From Escherichia coli (lineage in GTDB: Bacteria; Pseudomonadota; Gammaproteobacteria; Enterobacterales; Enterobacteriaceae): DNA of 64,000 bases. The notes under the pieces are model-generated. The model was not told where the DNA came from, did no database searches, and saw only the letters and a program-made list of their open reading frames with translations. Both the position numbers and the translations under genes were made by a program. Numbering within the stretch: position 1 is the first letter of the stretch; each line of letters begins with the position of its first letter. Shown here one piece after another: positions 6,009 through 49,341 of the stretch. The stretch is from NCBI RefSeq assembly GCF_003991155.1, contig NZ_CP031293.1; one strand, given 5' to 3'.

Positions 6009-6084
6009 TCCTCTGTAGTTCAGTCGGTAGAACGGCGGACTGTTAATCCGTATGTCACTGGTTCGAGTCCAGTCAGAGGAGCCA
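6009..6084 (+). tRNA. tRNA-Asn (GTT anticodon)
   Basis: tcctctgtagttcagtcggtagaacggcggactgttaatccgtatgtcactggttcgagtccagtcagaggagcca; 76 nt, anticodon loop ctGTTaa. By recalled K-12 layout this is asnT-like by its downstream context and asnV-like by its upstream context. Confidence 0.95.
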
Positions 6085-30781: not shown

Positions 30782-31238
30782 TTATATTTTAAAGAAATCT
30801 GTCTTTATGGCAGATTTCTTTAATCTCATATAATTCTTATAAAGAATATAATATCCAGCTCGTCATATTGATTATAAAACCCACGCTCCCAGAGAAATAA
30901 TATTTATTAAAATTCCAGGCCTTCTTTTTCTGATTACAGAAGGCAAAGTGGCAATTACGTATAGTTTCCCGATAAAGACGTGACAGCAACATCCCGCATA
31001 AGGCATTTTTCTCTTTATCTTTGTACGGTGCTTCATGGAACAGAGTTTTTGACCTTGCGAATCGTGATGTCTGTTGGGGGGCAATTTGCTCACTGAAGCG
31101 TGAGACTCGATTAAGCACACGAAACACAGAAATCAAAAAACCCGGTCACTTTTTTACAAGGTAACCGGGTAAAAATGATTTTATTTTTTAACTGTCTTGA
31201 GACTCATAGAGATGTCTCAAAACTAAAATTTGGCTCCT

Positions 31239-31338
31239 CTGACTGGGATCGCCGTAGCCTTTAACAGGCTGATTGATAAGCTAAAACAAAAAATCGAGTT
31301 TGTCAAGACCACCAGACTGACCACCATTTTTATTAGCG
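31239..31338 (-). repeat. att-like repeat copy C (tRNA-Asn 3' fragment plus island arm) bounding the defence-like cassette
   Basis: Minus-strand reading: tggtggtcagtctggtggtcttgacaaactcgattttttgttttagcttatcaatcagcctgttaaaggctacggcgatcccagtcagaggagccaaa. The adjacent 31196-31238 matches the hairpin downstream of the tRNA at 6085-6120. Confidence 0.75.
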
Positions 31339-31496: not shown

Positions 31497-32414
31497 ATGA
31501 AGTCCAGATTTGGACCAAATGGGGTGCATTTATTCGACCGAAATACAGGTCTGAACGTCCTCCTGGAGGAGTTACGCCCAAAGGAATCTGTTTGGTCCAT
31601 TTCTCCACGCCAGGTCTCGATTGCACTTACCAATCTTTGTGACCTTCGCTGCGCACATTGTTTTGCGCCCAAGCATAAGGCATTGCTACATACTGACCAA
31701 GTGCTTACTTGGTTAAAAGAACTGGATACTGAAGGATGCCTCGGTATCGGATTTGGTGGTGGAGAACCAACACTGCATCCTGATTTCGTCGAAATATGTA
31801 AACGGGCTGCTGGGGAAACTCATCTTGCAGTCACATTTACGACTCATGGTCACCGTCTGACCCAGCCATTGGTTAAAAAACTCAAAGGCTCGATCCACTT
31901 TGCGCGCATTAGCGTTGACGGGATAGGTCATACCTACGAAGAACAACGTGGAAGGCAGTTTTCAAGTTTACTCAGAGGCATTGAGTCGATCGCGAAATTG
32001 TCGTCTTTTGGGATCAATGTCGTGATAAACGAGCGTACGATTTTTGAGCTTGACGCAGTGGCTGAGCTGGCGCAACAGTTTGGTGCTAGTGAATTGCTGT
32101 TGTTGCCTCAGCAAGCAACTAATGCAGTCGCAAGTATGGACGAATTGGTCGGCCGAGAGCTTCAAAACTGGGTCTCTAGCTATAGAGGAAAGGTTCGACT
32201 TGCAGTAAGTGAGGTGGGAGCGTCAGGGCTCCCCATATGTGACCCTCTTCCTAATGAAACAGGCCTTCAAGCCTACGCGCATATAGACGCTTCCGGGATA
32301 TTGCGCACGAGTTCTTATTCAACCACAGGTATGGATATTGAAGAAACTGGTGTTATGTCCGCGCTTAAACGGCTTAGAAATACCTTAGAGATTAAACAAG
32401 GGACACAATCATGA
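31497..32414 (+). CDS. Radical SAM enzyme (single 4Fe-4S cluster type, no SPASM extension)
   Basis: 305-aa ORF; CDLRCAHCF (CxxxCxxC, nt 31635-31658), GFGGGEPTLHP (GGEP SAM-binding motif), ARISVDG; stop overlaps the next start (ATGA at 32411-32414). Confidence 0.8.
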   Translation: MKSRFGPNGVHLFDRNTGLNVLLEELRPKESVWSISPRQVSIALTNLCDLRCAHCFAPKHKALLHTDQVLTWLKELDTEGCLGIGFGGGEPTLHPDFVEICKRAAGETHLAVTFTTHGHRLTQPLVKKLKGSIHFARISVDGIGHTYEEQRGRQFSSLLRGIESIAKLSSFGINVVINERTIFELDAVAELAQQFGASELLLLPQQATNAVASMDELVGRELQNWVSSYRGKVRLAVSEVGASGLPICDPLPNETGLQAYAHIDASGILRTSSYSTTGMDIEETGVMSALKRLRNTLEIKQGTQS

Positions 32415-32818
32415 AAATTTGGAACGGATACGGATCTGAGCATTCGATGAACTTAGTTCTCATCGGAAAATTCAAGCAAGAGCAAGATGCAGTGAAGGTC
32501 GAGAAGGATATTAAAACGCTCAGTACTCAGGCTGAGAAAGATGAATGTTACTCGATCCCTTTTGATGAGCCAGAGAATCAACGGTTTTCATATGAAATGC
32601 TCTCATTACTATGCAGCCTAAAACTCCACACTTTAGGACCAACCGATCTTGGTCAATTGGTGTCAGATCATCATCTAGATCGCGAAGGCGATAGAATAAC
32701 AATAACTACTGATGAGGCAGAGGTATCCGCGTTCGTGAAGCTGTTTGTCGAGGCTGGAGCAAAGGTCGAGATTTTCTCAGCGCATGACTATCCGTCCGAT
32801 TCCAGCGATGCCAGTTGA
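32411..32818 (+). CDS. Hypothetical 135-aa protein, translationally coupled between the radical SAM and NTPase genes
   Basis: Start overlaps the radical SAM stop; its own stop TGA overlaps the TTG at 32815. No recognisable motifs. Confidence 0.6.
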   Translation: MKIWNGYGSEHSMNLVLIGKFKQEQDAVKVEKDIKTLSTQAEKDECYSIPFDEPENQRFSYEMLSLLCSLKLHTLGPTDLGQLVSDHHLDREGDRITITTDEAEVSAFVKLFVEAGAKVEIFSAHDYPSDSSDAS

Positions 32819-35800
32819 CAGAGGATGCATTGATGCCTGAAGTAAATTGGAAAGTATTCAACGAACTGCCCGGTGCAGCAGATGTGAACTTCGAAAACCT
32901 TTGCCGCGCTCTGGTACGCCGACACTATGGTCGTTTCGGTCGCTTTAAGCAACTCGCAAATCAGCCTGGGGTGGAGTTTCACCTCGAGCTGACGGAGCCT
33001 TGTGATCTCGGTGCGCCACCAGGTTGGATTGGTTGGCAATGCAAGTGGTATGAACTGGTGAATGGACAAGATTTGGGAGCCTCCCGCCGCAACAAGATCA
33101 TCGAAGGTATCGAAAAGACGCGTAAGCATGTCCCTGGAGTGACCAATTGGAAGCTTTGGACTCATCACACGTTAACAAAAGGTGATCAAGAGTGGTTTTT
33201 CGCGCTAGAGCAAGACCGCTTCCCAGAATTGAAGTTAGAACTGCTCACAGCTACGGATATCGAAGATCTTTTGGTCGGACCGGGAGCGCTTTTACGAGAA
33301 ACCTACTTTGGTGAACTGGTTCTAACTCCAGAGCTAATTGCTGAGCAGTATAAGCTTGCAGTGGCCCCATTTAAGAACCGCTACCAGCCAGATGTTCATG
33401 TAGCGGTGGGGGCTGAGGAGAATATATTCAGGCATCTGTGCAGCCAAAACGCATGGGAATCTCTGGAAGAACTCTCAAACGCTTTAAAAAAGAATCATAC
33501 GAGCATTGCTTCGGTTACTGAGCAACTCAAAACTGAGCTCAGGGCTGAAGTTGAATTACTCCTGGCCCGGGTTATTGGGTTGACTGAGTTTATTGATGGC
33601 TTACACGCGGCGCTCGGCAAAGGTGACTTTAACTCTGTATATCAAGCGTTGGTTTCAAATCCGCGTCAGCCGGTACGTTATGACAGGCTACTTTCGAAAT
33701 TGCGTGGAGCGCGCTTTGACGGGGCTCCGTTAACCGCTAATTTGGTTGCAGATATCCACGCGGTTTCGTCAGTTCTCCGCAGTCTGGAGCAATCGATTAG
33801 TGCTCGGGCGGTTGCTGTTCTTGCGGCGGCGGGGGAAGGTAAGTCTGAACTTGCAGTCAAGGTAACACAGCCAGAAGGGGCGTTCCTAGGGGGAATCCTC
33901 CTATTAGGCAAGAATCTTCATTCAGGCCAGGGGCTTGATGATCTCGTATCTGCCTTCAAGATTTCTGGGAGACCAGCAGAAAGTTTTGACCGCCTGATTG
34001 AGGCCGTAGATGCGGCAGGCCAGCGTGCAGGTAAACGCATACCTATTGTTATTGACGGTCTGAATGAGGCGGAAGATCCGAGAAATTGGAAGGATGAATT
34101 ATCCCGAGTGGATGAGCTTCTAAAGAATTTTCCTTATGTCTTGTTAGTTGTCACTCTTCGCAATGAATTCGCCCAGATGTGTCTGCCTGAGGGGTTTCCC
34201 CAAGTTGAACATAATGGGTTTCAGGAAGATCCGAAGACAGCATTTGACAAGTATTTTGAGTACTACAAGATCGATGCTACTGATGCGGATCTACCAGTCG
34301 AACTCTTGCAGCACCCCTTAACACTGAGAATTTTTTGCGAAGTAGCAAATTCTCCTCGTCAGCATATTGTCGGAGTGGAAGCATTGCCCCGTTCGCTTGC
34401 AAGCCTGTTCGAAGCTCACTTTAACAAGGTTGCAGCACGAGTCGCTGAGCTTTCACCGACGATGCATCGCATTTATCAAGATGACGTTCAGGATGCACTA
34501 CTAACGATCGCGGGTCTTCTTTGGGATAACAATGCGAGAAGTGTGGATTTTCAGGCTACACGGATGGCAGTTCGGGATATGGGGTGGGACGACAGTATTA
34601 TTCGTGCACTGGAGTCTGAAGGCATTCTCGTTCGGACTATTTCTCCAGAAGGTAGGCAAGGAGTTGCGTTTGCATACGACCTAATGGCCGGACATATGAT
34701 GGCGCGCAACCTGCTTATGAAGCCTGAACTGGTGCAATGGCTACAAAGCGATGAAGGGAACGCAAAATTTAAATCTCATGGACCTGATTCGCATACCTTC
34801 GCTTATGACGTATTACGGGCTCTGGTTGATCTGTATCCGCAACACTCTGGTAGGCGGCAGCTTTGGCAAGACTTGTCGGATGATATACTCGTTATGAACG
34901 CTCTGCTATTGACGACGCAATCGGATCCAAGATATATCGGGCGGGCTACTGTTGAACGATTTGCTCAAGCTATGCAGGAGTCGAAGCGGTTTGCACAACT
35001 TGCCTTCGAGAGACTACGGAGCACTAGGGCTGCGCTGGCACATCCGTTTGATATGAGCTTTTTGCATGATGTGCTAATGGCTATGTCCAACACTCAGCGC
35101 GATCTTTTTTGGTCAGAGTGGATTCGTCAGAAATCTGAACAAGTTAAAGACGACTTAAAATTCTTGTCGACGAGATGGAAATCGGGTCATCTGGATGAGC
35201 GTGAACTTCGAAGAGTTCGCTGGGTAATGTGGACACTGACGACGACATCCAGAGCTTTGCGGGATATGGCTACCAAAGCCCTGTATGAATTTGCCATCAG
35301 GCGGCCAGAAGAGTTTTTCCGGTTAGCGACGGAGACAATTGTAGTTTCAGACCCATATGTCCCCGAGCGAGTGTTCGCCGCAGCCTACGGTGCAGTCCTG
35401 ACCACTTGGTCGGATATCGATGCGGTAGAGTTACATGATGCGTTGCCACGGTTCGCTCGTGAGATTTACCAAACCATGTTTGCACCTGGCGCTACAGCCC
35501 CTACCTGGCATGCATTACATCAGCAGTACTGTTTGGGAATCATTGCCATTGCGAGGATGGTCGATCCAAATTGTTTTTCAGAGGACGAAGCTGTTTATCT
35601 TCTTCCGCCATTTAGCCATCTGCCTAACGTATTTGAAAGCATTCAACCGTACGATCCAGAGATGATTGGGCGAGCGGAGAGCGCAGCGATTCAAATGGAC
35701 TTTGGTAACTATACGATTGGTGGACTTATTCCAGACAGAGCGAACTACGATGACAGTAATCCGGAGTACCAACAGGTGTTGCAGGCCATTGTTTCTCGAA

Positions 35801-36891
35801 TGCTGATGCTTGGTTATGACCCTGAGCAGTTTGAAGCTGTTGATCGGCAAATGTACTCCGGTTCTCGTATGGGAGATGACAAGCACAAAATCGATCGATA
35901 TGGCAAAAAGTACGGCTGGATAGCTTACTTCGAGATGTGGGGGATACGATACGCGCAGGGCCTCCTTTCCGAAGAACGCAGTGCTCGCCCATCAGATGCT
36001 GATATCGATCCAACGTTTCCGCAAAAAGTAGAGAGTATTAGTTTGTCACTCCCAGTCTTATTTAACGATCCGTCTGTGGATGATGGTGACTGGATCGTGG
36101 GAGGCCCGCTACCTGACTACCGTAGCATCCTTGAGATTACGGAGGTTGATGGTCTGACGGGGCCATGGATCCTACTTGACGGTTTTGTTGAGCAAAATGC
36201 TACCTCGGATGACCGACAGATTTTCACTTTCCTGCGAGGAGTATTCGTAGATAGCCAAGAAGTTGACAATCTATGTAGGTTGTTCATTGATCTTGAATAT
36301 CCTGGCAATAGCGCCATCCCTGATGCTCCTGGCTACTATTACACCTATGCGGGTGAGATGCCTTTCCCGACTATTCCGGGGCTGCTAGTCGCTAATGAAC
36401 AAGAGGATGATAGCGATGAAAATTTGGTGTTCGCAGAAAGATGGTCAGGCAATGGCGTTGCGGTAGATATCACAGTGCAGGACTACAACTGGGAGAGCTA
36501 CCATAGCGTGGAGAACCAAAGCAGCGGTGCGAGCCTGCCCTCAAAGCAACTTTGTGAGGCTTTGAATCTCAGATACTGTGCAAACAAATGGGATTTGCAT
36601 GATGCTGCAGGTGTAGCGTCACTTTACCGCAAAATTGACGAAAATGGTTCGGACGTCAGTGGCTCTGTCAGCTATCTACGTCGTGATCTACTTGACCGCT
36701 ATTTGATGCAATCCGGTAAGGTATTGGTATGGCTTATGTGGGGAGAGCGTGGTTTTCATTACCGGTCCAACAAGACACGCAATTTGCACAGGTATTACGT
36801 GAATCACCAACATATTCACAAGCGTATTCATATCCATCAGATAGCTTCGAGTACTAGTAACCCAAATATTGCGGATGGAGTCGCTATATGA
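32815..36891 (+). CDS. NACHT-like STAND NTPase with an N-terminal Mrr-like nuclease-fold domain and a long C-terminal region (NLR/Avs-like)
   Basis: 1358-aa ORF (TTG at 32815 or ATG at 32833). N-terminus FENLCRALVRRHYG...EPCDLGAPPGWIGWQCKWY resembles an Mrr-cat type D...QxK nuclease. Walker A VLAAAGEGKSE (nt 33823-33849, aa ~340); Walker B IPIVIDGLNEAED (aa ~410) then LLVVTLR. About 850 aa of C-terminus without enzymatic motifs. Confidence 0.8.
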   Translation: MTEDALMPEVNWKVFNELPGAADVNFENLCRALVRRHYGRFGRFKQLANQPGVEFHLELTEPCDLGAPPGWIGWQCKWYELVNGQDLGASRRNKIIEGIEKTRKHVPGVTNWKLWTHHTLTKGDQEWFFALEQDRFPELKLELLTATDIEDLLVGPGALLRETYFGELVLTPELIAEQYKLAVAPFKNRYQPDVHVAVGAEENIFRHLCSQNAWESLEELSNALKKNHTSIASVTEQLKTELRAEVELLLARVIGLTEFIDGLHAALGKGDFNSVYQALVSNPRQPVRYDRLLSKLRGARFDGAPLTANLVADIHAVSSVLRSLEQSISARAVAVLAAAGEGKSELAVKVTQPEGAFLGGILLLGKNLHSGQGLDDLVSAFKISGRPAESFDRLIEAVDAAGQRAGKRIPIVIDGLNEAEDPRNWKDELSRVDELLKNFPYVLLVVTLRNEFAQMCLPEGFPQVEHNGFQEDPKTAFDKYFEYYKIDATDADLPVELLQHPLTLRIFCEVANSPRQHIVGVEALPRSLASLFEAHFNKVAARVAELSPTMHRIYQDDVQDALLTIAGLLWDNNARSVDFQATRMAVRDMGWDDSIIRALESEGILVRTISPEGRQGVAFAYDLMAGHMMARNLLMKPELVQWLQSDEGNAKFKSHGPDSHTFAYDVLRALVDLYPQHSGRRQLWQDLSDDILVMNALLLTTQSDPRYIGRATVERFAQAMQESKRFAQLAFERLRSTRAALAHPFDMSFLHDVLMAMSNTQRDLFWSEWIRQKSEQVKDDLKFLSTRWKSGHLDERELRRVRWVMWTLTTTSRALRDMATKALYEFAIRRPEEFFRLATETIVVSDPYVPERVFAAAYGAVLTTWSDIDAVELHDALPRFAREIYQTMFAPGATAPTWHALHQQYCLGIIAIARMVDPNCFSEDEAVYLLPPFSHLPNVFESIQPYDPEMIGRAESAAIQMDFGNYTIGGLIPDRANYDDSNPEYQQVLQAIVSRMLMLGYDPEQFEAVDRQMYSGSRMGDDKHKIDRYGKKYGWIAYFEMWGIRYAQGLLSEERSARPSDADIDPTFPQKVESISLSLPVLFNDPSVDDGDWIVGGPLPDYRSILEITEVDGLTGPWILLDGFVEQNATSDDRQIFTFLRGVFVDSQEVDNLCRLFIDLEYPGNSAIPDAPGYYYTYAGEMPFPTIPGLLVANEQEDDSDENLVFAERWSGNGVAVDITVQDYNWESYHSVENQSSGASLPSKQLCEALNLRYCANKWDLHDAAGVASLYRKIDENGSDVSGSVSYLRRDLLDRYLMQSGKVLVWLMWGERGFHYRSNKTRNLHRYYVNHQHIHKRIHIHQIASSTSNPNIADGVAI

Positions 36892-37052
36892 GTTACGACT
36901 TCAGAAATCTTTCATCCGCAAACTTTGAGGATCTTGTGCGGGATCTTATCGAAAAAGAAGAAGGGTTCGCTTCGAAGCATTCTCTGTGGGGGCTGATAAT
37001 GATATTGATGGCCGACACGCACATGCTGGAGGGAATGTCAGTTTATAGGTAA
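36888..37052 (+). pseudogene. Short ORF resembling an Mrr-like N-terminal fragment (possible remnant of a further gene)
   Basis: 54 codons overlapping the NTPase stop (ATGA): MSYDFRNLSSANFEDLVRDLIEKEEGFASKH...; the FEDLV..L motif echoes the N-terminus of the NTPase protein; followed by ~1 kb with no ORF. Confidence 0.3.
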
Positions 37053-38005
37053 AACCTTATGAAGGGGCGTCGTTTAGTATACTGATGGCTATTATGAAGT
37101 GTGAGTGGTTGTCTAAAGATAAGCTAGCCCTCACACGCTGTATCAAGCGACCTCTTGTTAGCTTACTCCAGCTAGCAAGAGTAAACTTTCCCCACTCATA
37201 GGGCTATGTTTGAAGTCCGAGTCGGAAATTGGGGGGCAGAAGACATAAAAGGTCTCCTTAAGAAGTCTTCTTGTCTGTACAAAAACTCTTATTTTGACAA
37301 AGAGCATTGTAGTTATTAACAGGCTGATTAATAAATTTAAAAATAAGTCGTCAGGAACACCAGATTAGCTACCCAAATTCTCATGCCGTGGAAGCGGAAG
37401 AAAAATACTCCCCTGAATATCTTCATATCGGATATACATAATAAGCTTGAGGTTGTATATTTGAAGAATTGAGTAGCCAGAGCCTTGTTGACATAAAGCG
37501 ACACGAACAACATGTTACTTAAAATATCACGAGTATATATTCAGACTTGTTTATGTTGCGACATGGATTCTACAGGCAGCTGGCTGAAACAGTGAGTCAG
37601 AAAAATTTACAGGAGCGCCATAGTCATTAATGGATATCCGTAATATGCTGATGCAAAAGGGTAAGGAGTTTGCCGGTAATCTGCGGTGTTAGACGACAAT
37701 TACAAAACGACCTTAGGCGTCAATTACCGCTGAAAAAAGTGACAGATCACTTTCTATAAAATGCTGCCGTATGACCGACAGATTTATTCCGCTTTATAGC
37801 CATGACTGTTCGGTGCTCACTTCGCTGCGCTCCGCCTCAGTCCTGCCTAAAAAGCGTTGCAGGTTAGTTTGTATCGGCCTAATGAAAGGCTGTTTTAGCG
37901 AAGCGTAAATGTGACATCTTATCTGGTCTAATCTCTTTGCGATAATTGACGCAAAAGCATGGGCTGTAATTGTCACGCAATACTGCGGCAAGTCTCATGA
38001 TGATG

Positions 38006-38100
38006 CCTCTGACAGGGATCTCCGTAGCCATTAACTGGTCGATTGGTAAGCTAAAACAAAAAAATTGAATTTGTCAAGACAGCCATAATGACTACCATTT
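38006..38100 (-). repeat. att-like repeat copy D (degenerate), internal boundary of the composite island
   Basis: Minus-strand reading: tggtagtcattatggctgtcttgacaaattcaatttttttgttttagcttaccaatcgaccagttaatggctacggagatccctgtcagagg; the tRNA-derived end is truncated and diverged. Confidence 0.65.
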
Positions 38101-38264
38101 TCGTCTCTGCTTTTCCATCCTGAAATTAATGGCTATCATATTCGCAATAGACAACATCATCTTACTTGCACTCAACTATAACTAATGCTGAGTGCAAGAA
38201 ACGGGGATTATATCCCCTATCAAGGACCTGTTGAAATATTAGTCTGGAATTTCGAGGCTGTAAT

Positions 38265-38789
38265 TTAAATTGCTCCATTTGCCTTAGCATCAAGAATGAA
38301 TTTTTCATACTCGCGTTCTGCAACAACAACAGGGACTGTTTTGCGATTATATAATTGCATTAATAACAATGTACGATGCCTTCCATCAGAAACACCAAAT
38401 TCACTGTTAGATGCCTCTGGATATTCAACATACCCTTTTGATATATATTTTTTGATTTTATGCCATCTACGCGGATCAATGCAGAATGCTCCATCTCCTA
38501 ATTTTTTAAGAAAGGCTAGCCCATCGACATATACAATCCTGGTAGGACAATGCCGATAGCGTACAGGAAGGGTAAAGATAATATTTTCAAAAACAGGGAA
38601 AGTAAGACCTGAATCATCTTTAGGTATTGACTCAAAGGAATCAAAAGGATATTTTGTCATGTAATCATTTAGTTTTTCAATATCCATATTGGAAAACCAC
38701 GATACTTCCGGGAGAAATTTTTTATCTCTTTCTCTAATTTCTTTGATCGAATCTCCAAATATATCATCTAACCTCCACCCCTCTTTCAT
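38265..38789 (-). CDS. Hypothetical protein with a DGxHR motif (ParB/Srx-like fold suspected)
   Basis: 174-aa AT-rich ORF; ...EFGVSDGRHRTLLLMQL... resembles the DG(Q/H)HR core of ParB-like nuclease-domain proteins; last gene of the orphan Rhs array. Confidence 0.4.
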   Translation of the reverse strand: MKEGWRLDDIFGDSIKEIRERDKKFLPEVSWFSNMDIEKLNDYMTKYPFDSFESIPKDDSGLTFPVFENIIFTLPVRYRHCPTRIVYVDGLAFLKKLGDGAFCIDPRRWHKIKKYISKGYVEYPEASNSEFGVSDGRHRTLLLMQLYNRKTVPVVVAEREYEKFILDAKANGAI

Positions 38790-38833: not shown

Positions 38834-39349
38834 TCAAATTTTATGAATACTAATAAGGGGTTTGCACCACTCAACCGAGAGAATATCTTCCATTTTATAA
38901 AAAACGCCATAATCACTTTGATTATAATGCTCAATTTTATCAGCCATTTGTAATCTAATTTTGTCTTTGTAAATTCTACTTCGGATCAAACTGGCGAAAT
39001 TATATATATCAACCCTCAGATTGATAATATTATTTCTATCTGGGCGTCTTTCATGTAACATATCACGAAAAGAAACAAGTAACGTAATTAATTTTTTAGC
39101 CTCATTATTTTTAATATATCCTTTTTTAAAGATGCATAATATTAATTTTGAAATTAAGCTGATTTTTATTTGTAAATTATAGATAGCATTATCGTTTGTC
39201 AGGCAGGTTATGACTTCAATTACTTCACGTGAGCGAATATAATTGTCCAGTGCTTCCCATTCATCCATTCCTCGATGCATTGAAAGTTCCAATTGCCTTA
39301 AAAAAGCATATAACCCCAATAAGAAGTCGCTATTGCAGTATATTTTCAT
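38834..39349 (-). CDS. Putative immunity protein for Rhs fragment B
   Basis: 171-aa AT-rich ORF overlapping by 4 nt the stop of the Rhs C-terminal fragment. Confidence 0.5.
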   Translation of the reverse strand: MKIYCNSDFLLGLYAFLRQLELSMHRGMDEWEALDNYIRSREVIEVITCLTNDNAIYNLQIKISLISKLILCIFKKGYIKNNEAKKLITLLVSFRDMLHERRPDRNNIINLRVDIYNFASLIRSRIYKDKIRLQMADKIEHYNQSDYGVFYKMEDILSVEWCKPLISIHKI

Positions 39350-40835
39350 GAATCACATCCTTTAATAAAACTCATTATTCGTGACCAAAAAGAGTCTTTT
39401 TTGTATATAGGGTTTTTATCGTTTAATGGTAAAGGATCGTCTGTTGGTATAACGGCTGTATTTCTTGGCCCAACATTTGTTTTAGTAAGTGAATCTTTGG
39501 AAGCATCAAACTCTACATAAGAACCATTCTTCCATGCCCCTGTTTCTGCACCTGCCGTTTTAGGATCTCCAAATGGCTCCACCTCAACGTGTACACCAAC
39601 AGGATTGCCTCTGGCAGGGTTGATAGACCCATCCTTGCTAATTCCATCAATACCCTCTGTTGAAGTATGATGTCTAACTCTAACAGTATCGTCACCAGTT
39701 AACCCTAACGGATCAATAATTTTTAGCGGATTAAATACATATCCATACAGGCAATCCCCACCTCTCAGCCCCATCGGATCAGCACACAGATACTGCCCCG
39801 TATCGCAATCATAATACCTGAATCGGTTATAGTACAGGCCTGACTCAACATCCTCGTACTGCCCCGGAAAACGTAACCGGCATGTGGGCGCATCTTCTTT
39901 ACTGATGCCTTCCTCACGCCCCCAGAGCTGCTGCTTGCCTTTCCAGACTATCAGACCCTCTTCGGTCAGCAGTTCTTGTACGCGGCCAGTTGTGTCTGTT
40001 ACCGCATAATGCAGTTGCCCCTTTTCATAACGCGCAAACGGCGTGAAATCTCCCGGCTCGTATATCCAGCGGATGGCGTTTTCATCTTCCGGTTTGCCGT
40101 CAGCGCCAACCGGAATTTCCGCCGTCAACTGGTCGCCGTTCCAGTGAAAATCCATGCCGCGTTTGTCGCGGCTGGTACAGCGCTTGCTGATGCGCCTGCC
40201 GAACGGGTCATACTTATATTCCCAGCGTTCGCCCTCCGGTGTTTCCAGTCCGGTCAACTGGCTGCGTGCATCCCATTTATAACGCCATTCCAGTGGGCGA
40301 TAACCCCCTTTATCCACCAGTTTCTGTACCAGCCTGCCGTTAACATCATATTTCCAGGTGATGTTGTGCGCATTCACCACCCGGACAAATCTCCCGTCTT
40401 CCCCTTTTCCGGTGTCCGGGTTGATGCGATGCGTCGAGTGCCGCCAGCCTTCATGTTCCCGCGATACCACACGACCATGCTGCTGTTGCTGGTGCGTCTC
40501 GCTTTCCAGTACGTTATTCACCCTGATCTGGCGACGGGTAATGTTCAGGTTTTTATCGTAAGTGAACAGCTCCTCGCACAGCGGAAACTGGCTGGAATCA
40601 CCCGTCCAGGTGGCGTGGCTTATCTGGTCGTTTGCCGTGATGGTGTTGAACATGGAGCCGCGCAGCGAGTCGGCGATTGCGGTGAGGTTATACGCTTTGT
40701 CGTAGCTTCGCTGCGTCGGGAGGTTTCCATGCCGCACAGGTCGTGCTCAAATGTCAGCGGGGCATGGTCCGCTATTCGCCATGACGTAAGATGCCCCATC
40801 AGGTCGCGGGTGAAGCGTTCTGTGATACCCTCAGC
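39346..40835 (-). pseudogene. 5'-truncated Rhs fragment B (last ~350 aa of core plus a distinct C-terminal toxin tip)
   Basis: ORF 39346-40737: ...GLYYNRFRYYDCDTGQYLCADPMGLRGGDCLYGYVFNPLKIIDPLGL then a unique ~120-aa tip. DNA 39690-40835 is homologous to 10150-11340 of the main Rhs gene, with a frame disruption near 40700-40760. Confidence 0.8.
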
Positions 40836-40850
40836 CTGTAATTTTACAGG

Positions 40851-41303
40851 TTAAATGGGGAATTTTTCTTCAATGAGCTTCAAGCCAAGTAATGCCATAT
40901 CATGAATATCTTCATCATGCGATTGAGCCGAAATTTTCAACCCGTTTACCATTCTTTTATCTGGGAAAGACATTGTTAATATAGTACACCAAAGCCTAAC
41001 GCTTTTTATTGTGTTAGGATTTTCGAGTATGTTAACGATATTTATAACAACATCATTAAAATCACACTTATAGAGAAAATCCTCAACAATTTGATATACT
41101 CCAAGACCATCACCCTCACCAAAAGATCGCAAAAATAAAGGTATTGCATCTTTATCGGGATGGGAAAGAAAGTAAATTCGTACCTCATCGTATTTATCTA
41201 TAAGATCCTGAGTAATATCACAATCCGCGGGCATTGGTTGATGTAGTGACAGGAACTCTAATGCTTCTTTTTTATTCATATTCATATATTTAATGATTCC
41301 CAA
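40851..41303 (-). CDS. Putative immunity protein for Rhs fragment A
   Basis: 150-aa ORF immediately 3' of Rhs C-terminal fragment A. Confidence 0.5.
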   Translation of the reverse strand: MGIIKYMNMNKKEALEFLSLHQPMPADCDITQDLIDKYDEVRIYFLSHPDKDAIPLFLRSFGEGDGLGVYQIVEDFLYKCDFNDVVINIVNILENPNTIKSVRLWCTILTMSFPDKRMVNGLKISAQSHDEDIHDMALLGLKLIEEKFPI

Positions 41304-41763
41304 AGTTTTTTATTCTGTCTGGCTAACTCATATAGTTGTTCAGTGATGACCTTTTTATCATAGCCTGCATTTGTTAAGATTTTTCTTAGGTCATCTATAT
41401 CCCTTTTCAAATATTGTTCTTTTGTCAAACCTCGAACAAATGCTCGTCTGAATGTCCAGGTAAGAGCATGTAAATCTTTACGCAGATTTATCGTAATTCC
41501 CTTACATTTTGTTGTGGGGCTTACCGCATCCTGAATGGCATGATGAGGTGTATGAGTTGCATTAAGCCCTGTTTTACCATTCGCATAAATTGAAGAACCA
41601 TATGTACCAACGTATAAATCTTCTCCTGGACCAGCTAACAATCCCAAGGGATCAATCCATACCAGTGGATTTGGAGCGTAATTGTAAAGGTTTACTCCCC
41701 CCGACAGTCCAATCGGATCAGCACACAGATACTGTCCTGTCTCGCAATCATAGTACCGGAACC
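41282..41763 (-). pseudogene. Rhs C-terminal fragment A, truncated at its 5' end by IS3 copy 2
   Basis: ORF 41282-41812 runs into the IS; ...YRFRYYDCETGQYLCADPIGLSGGVNLYNYAPNPLVWIDPLGL then a unique ~130-aa tip. Confidence 0.8.
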
Positions 41764-43013
<1,250 letters not shown>

Positions 43014-43385: not shown

Positions 43386-43964
43386 AACATAATTCTACAG
43401 ATGGCACAGTATCCCCCTGATACAGGTAAAAACTTATTTCACGGAAACCGGCATAGCAAACTGGATGACACAATACCGGGCAAAACGATAAGTATGGTTA
43501 CTATATGAAACGGAATACTCCCGTTTCGTATTATTTTTTTTGACTGATATCAACGGGACGAATTAACTGACAGGATATTTACTGGAAAGTGTCTGCATAT
43601 TGCTCAATATATTTTTAATGGAAATGTATTCTCCATTAATATTTATGGTGTGATTGTGTTTCCCTGTGTGTCAGCTTCCGCTAAACCCCTTGCTGCAAAT
43701 TACCGATCATTGTATTGTTGCGCCGCGCCTGCAAAATCAGGCGTCGGGATTGGAACCCTGATAAGTGTTACAGGCGACATATAGCGCATTTTGCGTCTTT
43801 TTTATGTCGTGCGTCTGGCTGCATCTCAATGGTGGGCTGGACGGGGGCGTCGCAAGACGCGCCGGTTTCCTGTAACACCGGTAGTTCCAACCCCGTTCAG
43901 TTCACCACCAATGAGATTGGAACCTCTGGTGGTGGAATTACCACCCGTTACAGGAGGCTATCCT

Positions 43965-45099: not shown

Positions 45100-45864
45100 C
45101 TCAGCATTTTACATTCACAAATACACGATAAAATCAGGGGGAAAACCAATATCCAGAAAAATGAGTTTCCCCTTTCTGCGCCAGAAATAACGGTGTAATC
45201 TCCCTCCTGCATTGTCGCCTTCGGGCACCCTTTGGCTTCATGGTCTGCAAGAAGCCCCTGATTTATCAGGATGACCAGCCCTTACTACCGGTACGACCTC
45301 CGCAATACCGGAACGCGAAAGCGTTTGAGGCTAAGAGTACATACACCCGAACGGCTTCATCGTCATTGCTTAACGGCAACAGTCTTCACCGGCTGAACGG
45401 CTTTTCTTTGCCGGAATTTCCCGACTGCCCCATACCCAGCTGAAAACAGCGCCCTTTACATGACGGGCTGCGGCCTGCATTGCCGTCAGGCTTTGCTGCC
45501 GCGTGACCGTCATTCTGCACCAGAAACGCAACGTTTACCCCCTGCACCAGATGAGGCGTCACTTTGGTCGCGCCAGCGAAAAAGCAAAGTGACGCCGTAC
45601 AACATACCGCCGCAAGCCGCGCCAGTTCTGGCCTGCGTCCTGTTTCCGCCGTCTGACATGCCCTTTGGGGCGCTGTCAGTCCAGAGTAAAGGAGAAAAAG
45701 ATCGATACCGAGGGGGGCACGACGCCCCGGAGATACCCCTGCTTCGTCAGGCAGTCTGTACCGCGTACAGCCTGAAACTCCCTAAACCTCAACAATCAGC
45801 CACTCCGGCGTGAAGGTATCGTTCTGGCGCAGCCAAAAAGCACACGCCGGAGACTGTTTGTTTT

Positions 45865-47841: not shown

Positions 47842-49104
47842 TCAGGCTGCCTTATGCTGCCGCGCATAAATATACGGCGCGACATACCCCTCGCGGCACA
47901 CATCCAGATAATCCGACCACCACTGCATCATGGCCTTTCTGGCCTCCAGATGCTCCGCTTTATGCACATAGGCCGCCCGCACGCTGTTACGCTCCTAGTG
48001 GCTCATTTGCCGTTCCACCGTATCGCGTGACCAGAGATCCGACTCTACCAGGGCGCTACAGGCCATTGCGCGAAGTCCATGTCCGCACACATCGGTTTTC
48101 GTATCATACCCCATCAGGCGCAGCGCCCGGTTGGTTGTGTTTTCGCTCATTGGCTTGTACGGGTTATGGTCGCCGGGGAATACCAGATCCAGATGGCCGG
48201 AAAGCTCCTGTATCTGTTTCAGAATGGCAATCGCCTGGCGGGAGAGTGGCACGATATGCGGACTACGCATTTTTGCGCCACGCCCCGAAAACCGTACTTT
48301 GTCGATGGCCTCGCGGGTGGCGGGGATGGTCCAGATTTTGTGCCTGAAATCAATCTCGCTCCAGCGGGCGAAACGCAGTTCGCTGGAACGGATGAACAGG
48401 TGCAGTGTCAGCACCACCGCCAGCCGGGTTAACTCCCGGCCCTGCCGGTAATCGCCAATACGATCGAGCAATTCAGGCAACCGCTCCAGCGGTAAAGCGG
48501 GATAGTGATTCTTGACGGGAGAGGCGACTACACCATCCAGATGCTGCGCCGGGTTGCTTTCGGTCAGTCCCTGCTGAACGGCATAGCGCATGATGTTGCT
48601 GAGTTGCTGCCGGGTTCGGGACGCGACTTCCAGAAAGCCCTTATCCTCAATAACCCGCAGCAAAGCCGTGAAATCCTGCGTTTTAAGCGCAGCAACGGGC
48701 AGATGACCAATCGCCGGGAAGATATGGTTTTCCATACTGGCGAGAATACGGGCGGCATAATCAGCCGACCATTTTTTGTTGGTTTTGTGCCAGGCCAGCG
48801 CCACCGCCTTAAAGCACTTTTCAGGGGAGCAGGCGGATTTCTCTGCCATACGCTGTTGCGCCGGGTTGATATTCTGCGCCAGTAGCTTGCGGATACCGTC
48901 GCGCTGTTGCCTGGCTTCTGCCAATGAGACAAGCGGATATGCGCCAAGACTGACTCTGGATTCTTTTCCGTTGAAACGATATTTGAGATACCAGATGCGT
49001 GAACCACCCGGATTGACGAGCAGATACAGACCCTGAGAGTCGGAGAGTTTTACCGGACGGGAAGAAGACTTTAACTTGCGGATTTTAGAATCGTTTAAAG
49101 ACAT
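47842..49104 (-). pseudogene. P4-type integrase with an in-frame amber codon before the catalytic tyrosine
   Basis: ORF 47995-49206 ends ...VERQMSH at TAG (47995-47997); the same frame continues ERNSVRAAYVHKAEHLEARKAMMQWWSDYLD... to 47842. The integrase at 6227-7513 has CAG (Q) at the equivalent codon. Adjacent to tRNA-Asn. Confidence 0.8.
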
Positions 49105-49265
49105 TTGGGGGTCACTCCAGAATCGAACCAAACTGACCCCAGATCTGACCACCAAATTATCCCGATGCGGAGAGAAAATTAGATACGCACCGGGAAGGAT
49201 TTTCACGCTAACTTACTGAATCGTAAACAAATAGAGACGCATAGATAAGCATGAAAACTTGAATT

Positions 49266-49341
49266 TGGCTCCTCTGACTGGACTCGAACCAGTGACATAC
49301 GGATTAACAGTCCGCCGTTCTACCGACTGAACTACAGAGGA
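49266..49341 (-). tRNA. asnW: tRNA-Asn (GTT)
   Basis: Reverse complement is identical to the tRNA-Asn at 6009-6084; lies between the integrase and yeeO. Gene symbol from recalled K-12 synteny. Confidence 0.9.

Follow-up and report, generated by a model that had tools for sequence, protein, structure and literature searches.

The three genes that occupy positions 31497 to 36891 of a 64,000-nucleotide stretch of Escherichia coli DNA (contig NZ_CP031293.1 of assembly GCF_003991155.1; the whole stretch is referred to here as the window) are, with high probability, the E. coli orthologue of the KpAvs2 antiphage operon Avap1-Avap2-Avs2 published for Klebsiella pneumoniae (PMC11564622), as far as their sequences allow this to be judged. 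They encode a radical S-adenosylmethionine (SAM) protein, a small protein and a large NTPase of the STAND class (signal transduction ATPases with numerous domains), and the locus therefore documents a near-identical E. coli allele of an operon that is already known. Furthermore, the results on conservation and structure presented below point to a protein, rather than a nucleotide, as the substrate of Avap1, and draw attention to an invariant and flexible tail in Avap2.

Identity of the three genes

Each of the three proteins belongs to a family that is also found in the published operon. When run against hidden Markov models (HMMs) of defence systems, the large protein matches the PADLOC model for Avs2 (PDLC02164, E 7.7e-116, residues 8-969); the small protein, which an earlier inspection of this DNA (the sequence-only reading) had considered devoid of any recognizable motif, matches Pfam DUF6375 (PF19902) over its full length (E 9.8e-60, residues 1-133); and the first is a radical SAM enzyme, as had been supposed, with the cluster motif CxxxCxxC formed by C48, C52 and C55 and a match to Pfam Radical_SAM (PF04055, E 3.9e-15). 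Avap1, Avap2 and Avs2 of the window have K. pneumoniae homologues of 305, 135 and 1352 amino acids (aa), with which they share 94%, 98% and 96% identity, respectively, and each shares its 90%-identity cluster with a K. pneumoniae protein of equal length. These families and identities, together with the positions of two lysines of Avs2, K71 and K337, place the operon of the window in the KpAvs2 type. Thus, the functional guess of the sequence-only reading, an antiphage operon built around a nuclease-STAND protein similar to the nucleotide-binding leucine-rich repeat (NLR) receptors and provided with an obligate radical SAM partner, was right, and the partner is indeed obligate at the genomic level; what did not survive was the idea of an undescribed system, given that Béchon et al. 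(Nat Commun 2024, PMC11564622) describe, name and experimentally dissect the same three-gene operon, and that structures of Avs2 relatives obtained by cryo-electron microscopy (cryo-EM) are now available.

Certain points weigh against this identification. Orthology to the tested construct of K. pneumoniae S_15PV is very likely on the grounds of cluster membership, equal lengths and residue numbers, the identities given above having been computed against further K. pneumoniae proteins that fall in these 90% clusters and not against the S_15PV operon itself, and the approximately 4% by which Avs2 differs from the Klebsiella protein could alter phage specificity. In addition, Avs2 reaches only 276 bits with the NCBIfam Avs2 equivalog, the cutoff of which is 1000, a shortfall that indicates a divergent Avs2 subclade, and a Pfam scan of its first 1199 residues returned nothing significant, in such a way that the nuclease domain went undetected.

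The limits of the genes required some revision. The sequence-only reading had presented three open reading frames (ORFs) on the same strand, at 31497-32414, 32411-32818 and 32815-36891, which are present as claimed, and had joined them through two overlaps of 4 nucleotides (nt). The first of these, the ATGA shared by avap1 and avap2 at 32411-32414, is real, and in a scan that took one genome for each of 100,044 species, used an Avap2 alignment as query and yielded 63 Avap2 loci, it recurs in about 33 of the 54 intact loci, distributed among many phyla. The second, formed by a TTG at 32815 and the TGA of avap2 (32815-32818), is most likely an artefact of extending the third gene to its longest ORF (32815-36891, 1358 aa), and the start of avs2 is most likely the ATG at 32833: a GAGGA Shine-Dalgarno sequence lies 6 nt upstream of it, it is the start that the Prokaryotic Genome Annotation Pipeline (PGAP) assigns to avs2 in identical genomes, and a protein read from it has 1352 aa and carries K71 and K337 where the published numbering puts them. 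The resulting gap of 14-15 nt between avap2 and avs2 is also the most frequent spacing among the loci at 75% identity or more (nine of twelve), and the close homologues with this gap have no in-frame start further upstream. Even without a second overlap, avap1, avap2 and avs2 are tightly packed and operonic. To this extent the claim of a single unit was correct, but the unit is not cleanly one of three genes, for a decayed fourth gene follows at 36888-37266. A scan for promoters and terminators between 30700 and 38200 gave no more sites than shuffled sequence.

The closest known system is thus the KpAvs2 operon of S_15PV, with which the operon of the window shares the three families and their order, the lengths of 305, 135 and 1352 aa, the positions of K71 and K337, the architecture of Mrr nuclease, STAND and C-terminal sensor, and an identity of 94-98% (to K. 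pneumoniae homologues); the differences lie in the host, E. coli, in the location within a tRNA-Asn island, in a decayed PDC-S73 gene after avs2, and in about 4% of the Avs2 residues, the window allele being known here from its sequence. EcAvs2 (AVAST type 2, structure 9o4e, preprint 10.64898/2026.04.30.721860) has a homologous STAND NTPase and TPR sensor, and both it and the KpAvs2 type recognize the large terminase and are activated by Ksap1; however, EcAvs2 is encoded by a single gene, without Avap1 or Avap2, and its N-terminal effector is non-enzymatic and uncharacterised, and not an Mrr-like nuclease. SeAvs3 and EcAvs4 (Gao et al., Science 2022) also combine nuclease, STAND and sensor, form tetramers on a phage protein and degrade DNA, although with other sensor domains and targets (Avs4 senses the portal) and as single genes devoid of radical SAM or DUF6375 companions.

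Avs2 and the proposed mechanism

In the S_15PV operon, the radical SAM protein is Avap1, the protein with an HHpred match to PF19902 is Avap2, and KpAvs2 is a pattern-recognition NTPase that consists of an Mrr nuclease, a STAND module and a C-terminal sensor (PMC11564622). Introduced in E. coli, this operon defends against SECphi18, T2, lambda-vir and several BASEL phages, and does so by abortive infection, in which plasmid and cell DNA is degraded and growth stops when the multiplicity of infection is high (PMC11564622). The substitutions K71A and K337A and the deletion of residues 1066-1352 each abolish defence (PMC11564622); in other words, the Walker A mutation that the sequence-only reading proposed has already been tested on the Klebsiella operon, as K337A. 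The knockout of Avap1, for its part, was a premature stop codon and not a set of cysteine mutants (PMC11564622). The C-terminal domain of KpAvs2 directly binds the phage proteins Ksap1 (from Dhillonvirus) and Ksap2 (from Bas60) and the large terminase, and Avap2, which is needed for full defence, binds KpAvs2 constitutively and co-immunoprecipitates with it, an AlphaFold-Multimer prediction placing its contacts on the helical bundle that separates the nuclease from the NTPase (PMC11564622). This bundle corresponds to the “helical extension” that lies between effector and ATPase in EcAvs2, and in the cryo-EM structure of EcAvs2 with the terminase the tetramer joins the N-terminal effectors, as has also been described for SeAvs3 and EcAvs4 (10.64898/2026.04.30.721860).

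By analogy with the Klebsiella orthologue, the C-terminal sensor of Avs2 in the window would bind a phage protein (Ksap1, Ksap2 or the large terminase), and ATP binding at K337 and the K71 of the Mrr-like nuclease would both be required. Judging from its relatives, sensing would lead to tetramerisation and bring the nuclease heads together; as in the Klebsiella orthologue, where this has been shown, the nuclease would degrade DNA and the infected cell would arrest before the release of the phage. Avap2 would sit on Avs2 throughout and support full defence, and a modification of the Avap2 tail or of Avs2 by Avap1 might tune or license the sensor.

K71 and K337, the lysines mutated in KpAvs2, are both in place. 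Avs2 aligns with the solved chain of EcAvs2 (9o4e) over its NTPase/TPR region (E 2e-36, residues 331-964), and an Avs4 model of the N-terminal nuclease weakly matches its residues 7-124 (E 5.6e-5). The nuclease is of the PD-(D/E)xK (Mrr-like) type, with E21, E48 and Q69-x-K71, where K71 belongs to GWQCKW (codon 33043-33045); it is followed by the Walker A lysine K337, in GEGKS (codon 33841-33843), by the Walker B D408, and by the C-terminal sensor region. Across 53 Avs2 homologues, E21, E48, K337, D408 and E412 are invariant, G334 and G336 are conserved in 95% or more, Q occupies position 69 in 51 of them, and position 71 holds K in 45 and R in the other eight. The nuclease head and the P-loop described by the sequence-only reading are both present, but the P-loop is that of an Avs2-type STAND protein and not of NACHT, whose Pfam model (PF05729) gives no significant match (E 1.1, 9.5 bits), even if some PGAP records still label the protein as “NACHT domain-containing”. 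Among Enterobacterales, the substitutions in Avs2 cluster at residues 901-1100 (approximately 35533-36132), where they reach 19-21 per 100 residues as compared with 0-8 elsewhere, a distribution suggestive of mosaic exchanges in this part of the sensor.

Avap1, Avap2 and a possible modification

Avap2 is strongly conserved at its beginning. Its N-terminal segment MKIWNGYGSEHSMNLV (residues 1-16, window 32411-32460) shows almost no variation between E. coli and Actinobacteria, with W4, S9, E10, H11, S12, N14, L15, V16, G19 and F21 invariant across phyla, and the C-terminal FSAHDYP is highly conserved too; among enterobacterial, Pseudomonas and Burkholderia proteins the identity still amounts to 76-83%. 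In the AlphaFold model, the core is ferredoxin-like, and a comparison of this model with known structures returned no informative relative. Residues 1-9 have a predicted local distance difference test (pLDDT) score of 41, that is to say, they are apparently disordered, and a tail that is at once invariant and disordered suggests, as far as the model goes, a segment that would fold only when bound to a partner. The family is a large one, with 729 clusters at 90% identity in a large protein collection. As a separate observation, Avap2 homologues of Acinetobacter (L027:10001-10513 and L030:6321-6845 of the species scan) carry a long C-terminal low-complexity tail, (PEN)n, which is absent elsewhere.

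As regards Avap1, its only invariant cysteines are C101 and the three of the cluster motif. Its AlphaFold2 (AF2) model (pLDDT 92.9) resembles, in its overall fold and including the N- and C-terminal extensions, the SPASM/twitch maturases that act on peptides, a profile search of PDB sequences ranks SkfB first, and maturases of ribosomally synthesised and post-translationally modified peptides (RiPPs) give longer alignments and higher scores than viperins do. The models thus place Avap1 closest to radical SAM enzymes that modify peptides, and they suggest that it would modify a protein or peptide rather than carry out a nucleotide modification of the viperin kind. It is not, however, a copy of such enzymes, given that, compared with SkfB (6efn) and SuiB (5v1q), it lacks the SPASM/twitch cysteines for auxiliary Fe-S clusters, none being conserved in its C-terminal extension, as well as a full RiPP recognition element domain, and it has no known peptide product. 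The likeliest substrate would be the flexible tail at the N-terminus of Avap2, or else Avs2, the pattern of conservation in the Avap2 tail favouring a protein substrate of this sort.

It could be, although we advance the idea tentatively and rate its chances as rather low, that Avap1 installs a modification on the N-terminal tail of Avap2 or on Avs2, and that the readiness of the NLR-like sensor to fire depends on this modification. If true, it would be the first radical-SAM modification to regulate a STAND/NLR immune receptor. A literature search for later work on the function of Avap1 or Avap2 found none. Two points count against the idea: the absence from Avap1 of the SPASM/twitch cysteines that its closest structural relatives possess, and the possibility that the disordered tail of Avap2 could simply be an Avs2-binding element. 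The inability to delete Avap2 in the presence of Avap1 and KpAvs2, which suggests toxicity (PMC11564622), would fit another arrangement, one that we also hold to be doubtful, in which Avap1 and Avap2 constitute a regulatory guard module: Avap2 would restrain Avs2, or a toxic state that depends on Avap1, and Avap1 would sense a change in SAM or in Fe-S/redox state induced by the phage and free Avs2 against those phages that its sensor binds poorly. Such a role agrees with the presence of Avap2 on Avs2 both before and after infection and with the fact that Avap1 matters for some phages only, being needed against T2 and dispensable against SECphi18 (PMC11564622), and also with the conservation of Avap1, which at long distance is the highest of the three (46-55% identity, with 37-50% for Avap2 and 30-38% for Avs2). 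Nevertheless, the failed deletion is a negative result, and KpAvs2 on its own is weakly active (PMC11564622) instead of hyperactive.

Other readings separate Avap1 from the control of Avs2. A viperin-like Avap1 that produced a chain-terminating nucleotide analogue, and so acted as a second effector independent of the Avs2 nuclease, appears quite improbable: prokaryotic viperins (pVips) are likewise defence-associated radical SAM enzymes of about 300 aa and share the core fold with Avap1, but the match of Avap1 to the NCBIfam model (NF038283) attains 58.5 bits against a cutoff of 180 and is confined to the generic radical SAM core, and the RiPP maturases cover a larger part of the protein at higher scores. 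To this must be added that neither pVip-type nucleotides, of the 3′-deoxy-3′,4′-didehydro (ddh) class, in infected cells nor an NTP (nucleoside triphosphate) pocket in the AF2 model were found, and that Avap1 confers no defence alone (PMC11564622), always occurring, unlike the pVips, with Avap2 and Avs2; the identification of Avap1 as a viperin was accordingly set aside. The kinship of Avap1 with RiPP maturases, and a small downstream gene reminiscent of a precursor or partner, could also be taken to mean that avap1 and avap2 form a separate biosynthetic or metabolic cassette that merely lies beside avs2. This we regard as scarcely credible, in view of the constancy of order and strand in the 63 loci (three of them cut by a contig end), the avap1/avap2 overlap found in most, the co-immunoprecipitation of Avap2 with KpAvs2 and its requirement for defence (PMC11564622); nor was a conserved transporter, protease or other RiPP gene seen beside the triad, although the neighbourhoods were not systematically surveyed.

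Distribution and island setting

The co-occurrence of the triad was followed through the 63 loci of the species scan, which belong to Gamma-, Beta-, Alpha- and Deltaproteobacteria, Actinobacteria, Cyanobacteria, Planctomycetes, Verrucomicrobia, Nitrospirae, Gemmatimonadetes, Bacteroidetes and Paenibacillus, and include the Nitrospirae genome JdFR-85 (L040) that appears in Fig. 1B of PMC11564622. The order avap1-avap2-avs2 and the common strand are constant in all of them, with the exception of three in which a gene is lost at a contig end (L019, L029 and L065). In four of the 63 (L008, L013, L018 and L035), avap1 is split into two ORFs, and avs2 is split as well in two of these; such loci may be pseudogenes or errors in the assembly of metagenome-assembled genomes.

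Within E. coli the operon is found in 25 of 5426 complete genomes. In 23 of these it occupies this same tRNA-Asn site, the copies being more than 99% identical, and the others lie in a tRNA-Thr island (MLI107) and in a tRNA-Phe island (APEC20/16); a near-identical allele in three different tRNA islands indicates that the cassette moves. Near-identical copies were not found on plasmids, nor were Avap2 homologues found among 50,697 phage records, and divergent copies are carried by conjugative plasmids of Vibrio and by plasmids of Deinococcus and of cyanobacteria. In two of the 23 genomes, EC0585 (NZ_CP195049.1) and CREC-544 (NZ_CP024826.1), an IS100 element (IS21 family) splits the avs2 of an operon that is identical in all other respects, and presumably inactivates it.

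Table 1. Coordinates in the window of the operon and of the features that surround it.
Feature	Position	Strand	Description
avap1	31497-32414	+	305-aa radical SAM protein; CxxxCxxC, GGGEP SAM motif, invariant C101
avap2	32411-32818	+	135-aa DUF6375 protein (PF19902); start overlaps the avap1 stop (ATGA)
avs2	32833-36891	+	1352-aa Avs2-type STAND NTPase, most likely start; TTG 32815 would give 1358 aa
PDC-S73-like gene (restriction endonuclease/P-loop), decayed 5′ remnant	36888-37266	+	Coupled through an ATGA overlap to the avs2 stop
att-like direct repeat, copy 1	31231-31330		Distal end of the tRNA-Asn island; 31231-31246 equals the tRNA-Asn 3′ end
att-like direct repeat, copy 2	38006-38101		81-88% identical to copy 1; tRNA-derived end degenerate
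Weak third att-like repeat copy	37291-37348		64% identity; just past the end of the PDC-S73 remnant
Island anchor	47995-49341	-	tRNA-Asn (49266-49341) and adjacent tyrosine integrase pseudogene
Orphan Rhs C-terminal toxin tips	39346-40737, 41282-41812	-	Small ORFs, likely immunity genes, come after each

The window is a piece of the E. coli chromosome in which cbl-nac, tRNA-Asn, amn-yeeN, yeeO and cobUST-pdu can be recognized, and the operon, a cassette acquired by horizontal transfer, occupies the far end of a tRNA-Asn island (Table 1). The repeats of the attachment (att) type that had been reported to flank it are real and align over approximately 95 nt (31236-31330 and 38006-38101), and copy 1 includes the 3′ end of the tRNA, the 16 bases TGGCTCCTCTGACTGG at 31231-31246 being identical to that of the minus-strand tRNA-Asn. 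This identity delimits an island of approximately 18 kb, which goes from 31231 to the tRNA. The description of the cassette as integrase-less is accurate for the cassette itself but not for the island, which keeps an integrase pseudogene next to its tRNA. From their sequences, the repeat copies look like the product of successive insertions into one att site, and no gene was identified in the segment 37349-38005 between copies.

The decayed gene after avs2 can be understood by comparison with the E. coli strain MLI107, where the same position is occupied by an intact PDC-S73 gene, also coupled through ATGA and coding for 762 aa (L002:13474-15762, E 5e-146). In the window, a 54-aa ORF (36888-37052) matches the N-terminus of this PADLOC candidate, and the region 36888-37266 is 84% identical in DNA to the gene of MLI107, with three deletions of 1 nt and an early stop, which identify it as a remnant; the third repeat copy just beyond it suggests that the gene was truncated by a further insertion at the att site. 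PDC-S73 was considered as a conserved fourth component of the system and rejected, a trace of it being found in only one other of the 63 loci, that of Xenorhabdus (L004). It has in PADLOC the status of “candidate”, and no paper in the literature collection that was searched mentions it.

The toxin/immunity and satellite-phage modules that had been noticed nearby are confirmed by the Rhs tips and by Rfam matches to isrC, isrK, C4 antisense RNA and EFASI (41832-41954, 43725-43912 and 45697-45825), accompanied by genes for ash, helix-turn-helix, HigA and integrase-domain proteins; these RNAs and genes mark a P4-like satellite remnant in the same island. Between the cassette and the Rhs tips, a minus-strand ORF of 174 aa (38265-38789) contains the motif DGRHR and matches neither Pfam nor NCBIfam. 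Finally, of the three tRNA-Asn genes in the window, two serve as anchors for islands; the second island, at the tRNA-Asn of 6009-6084, contains, according to the annotation of an identical genome, an intact integrase, a RelE/ParE pair, a full Rhs with its immunity gene, a PAAR protein and an IS3 element.

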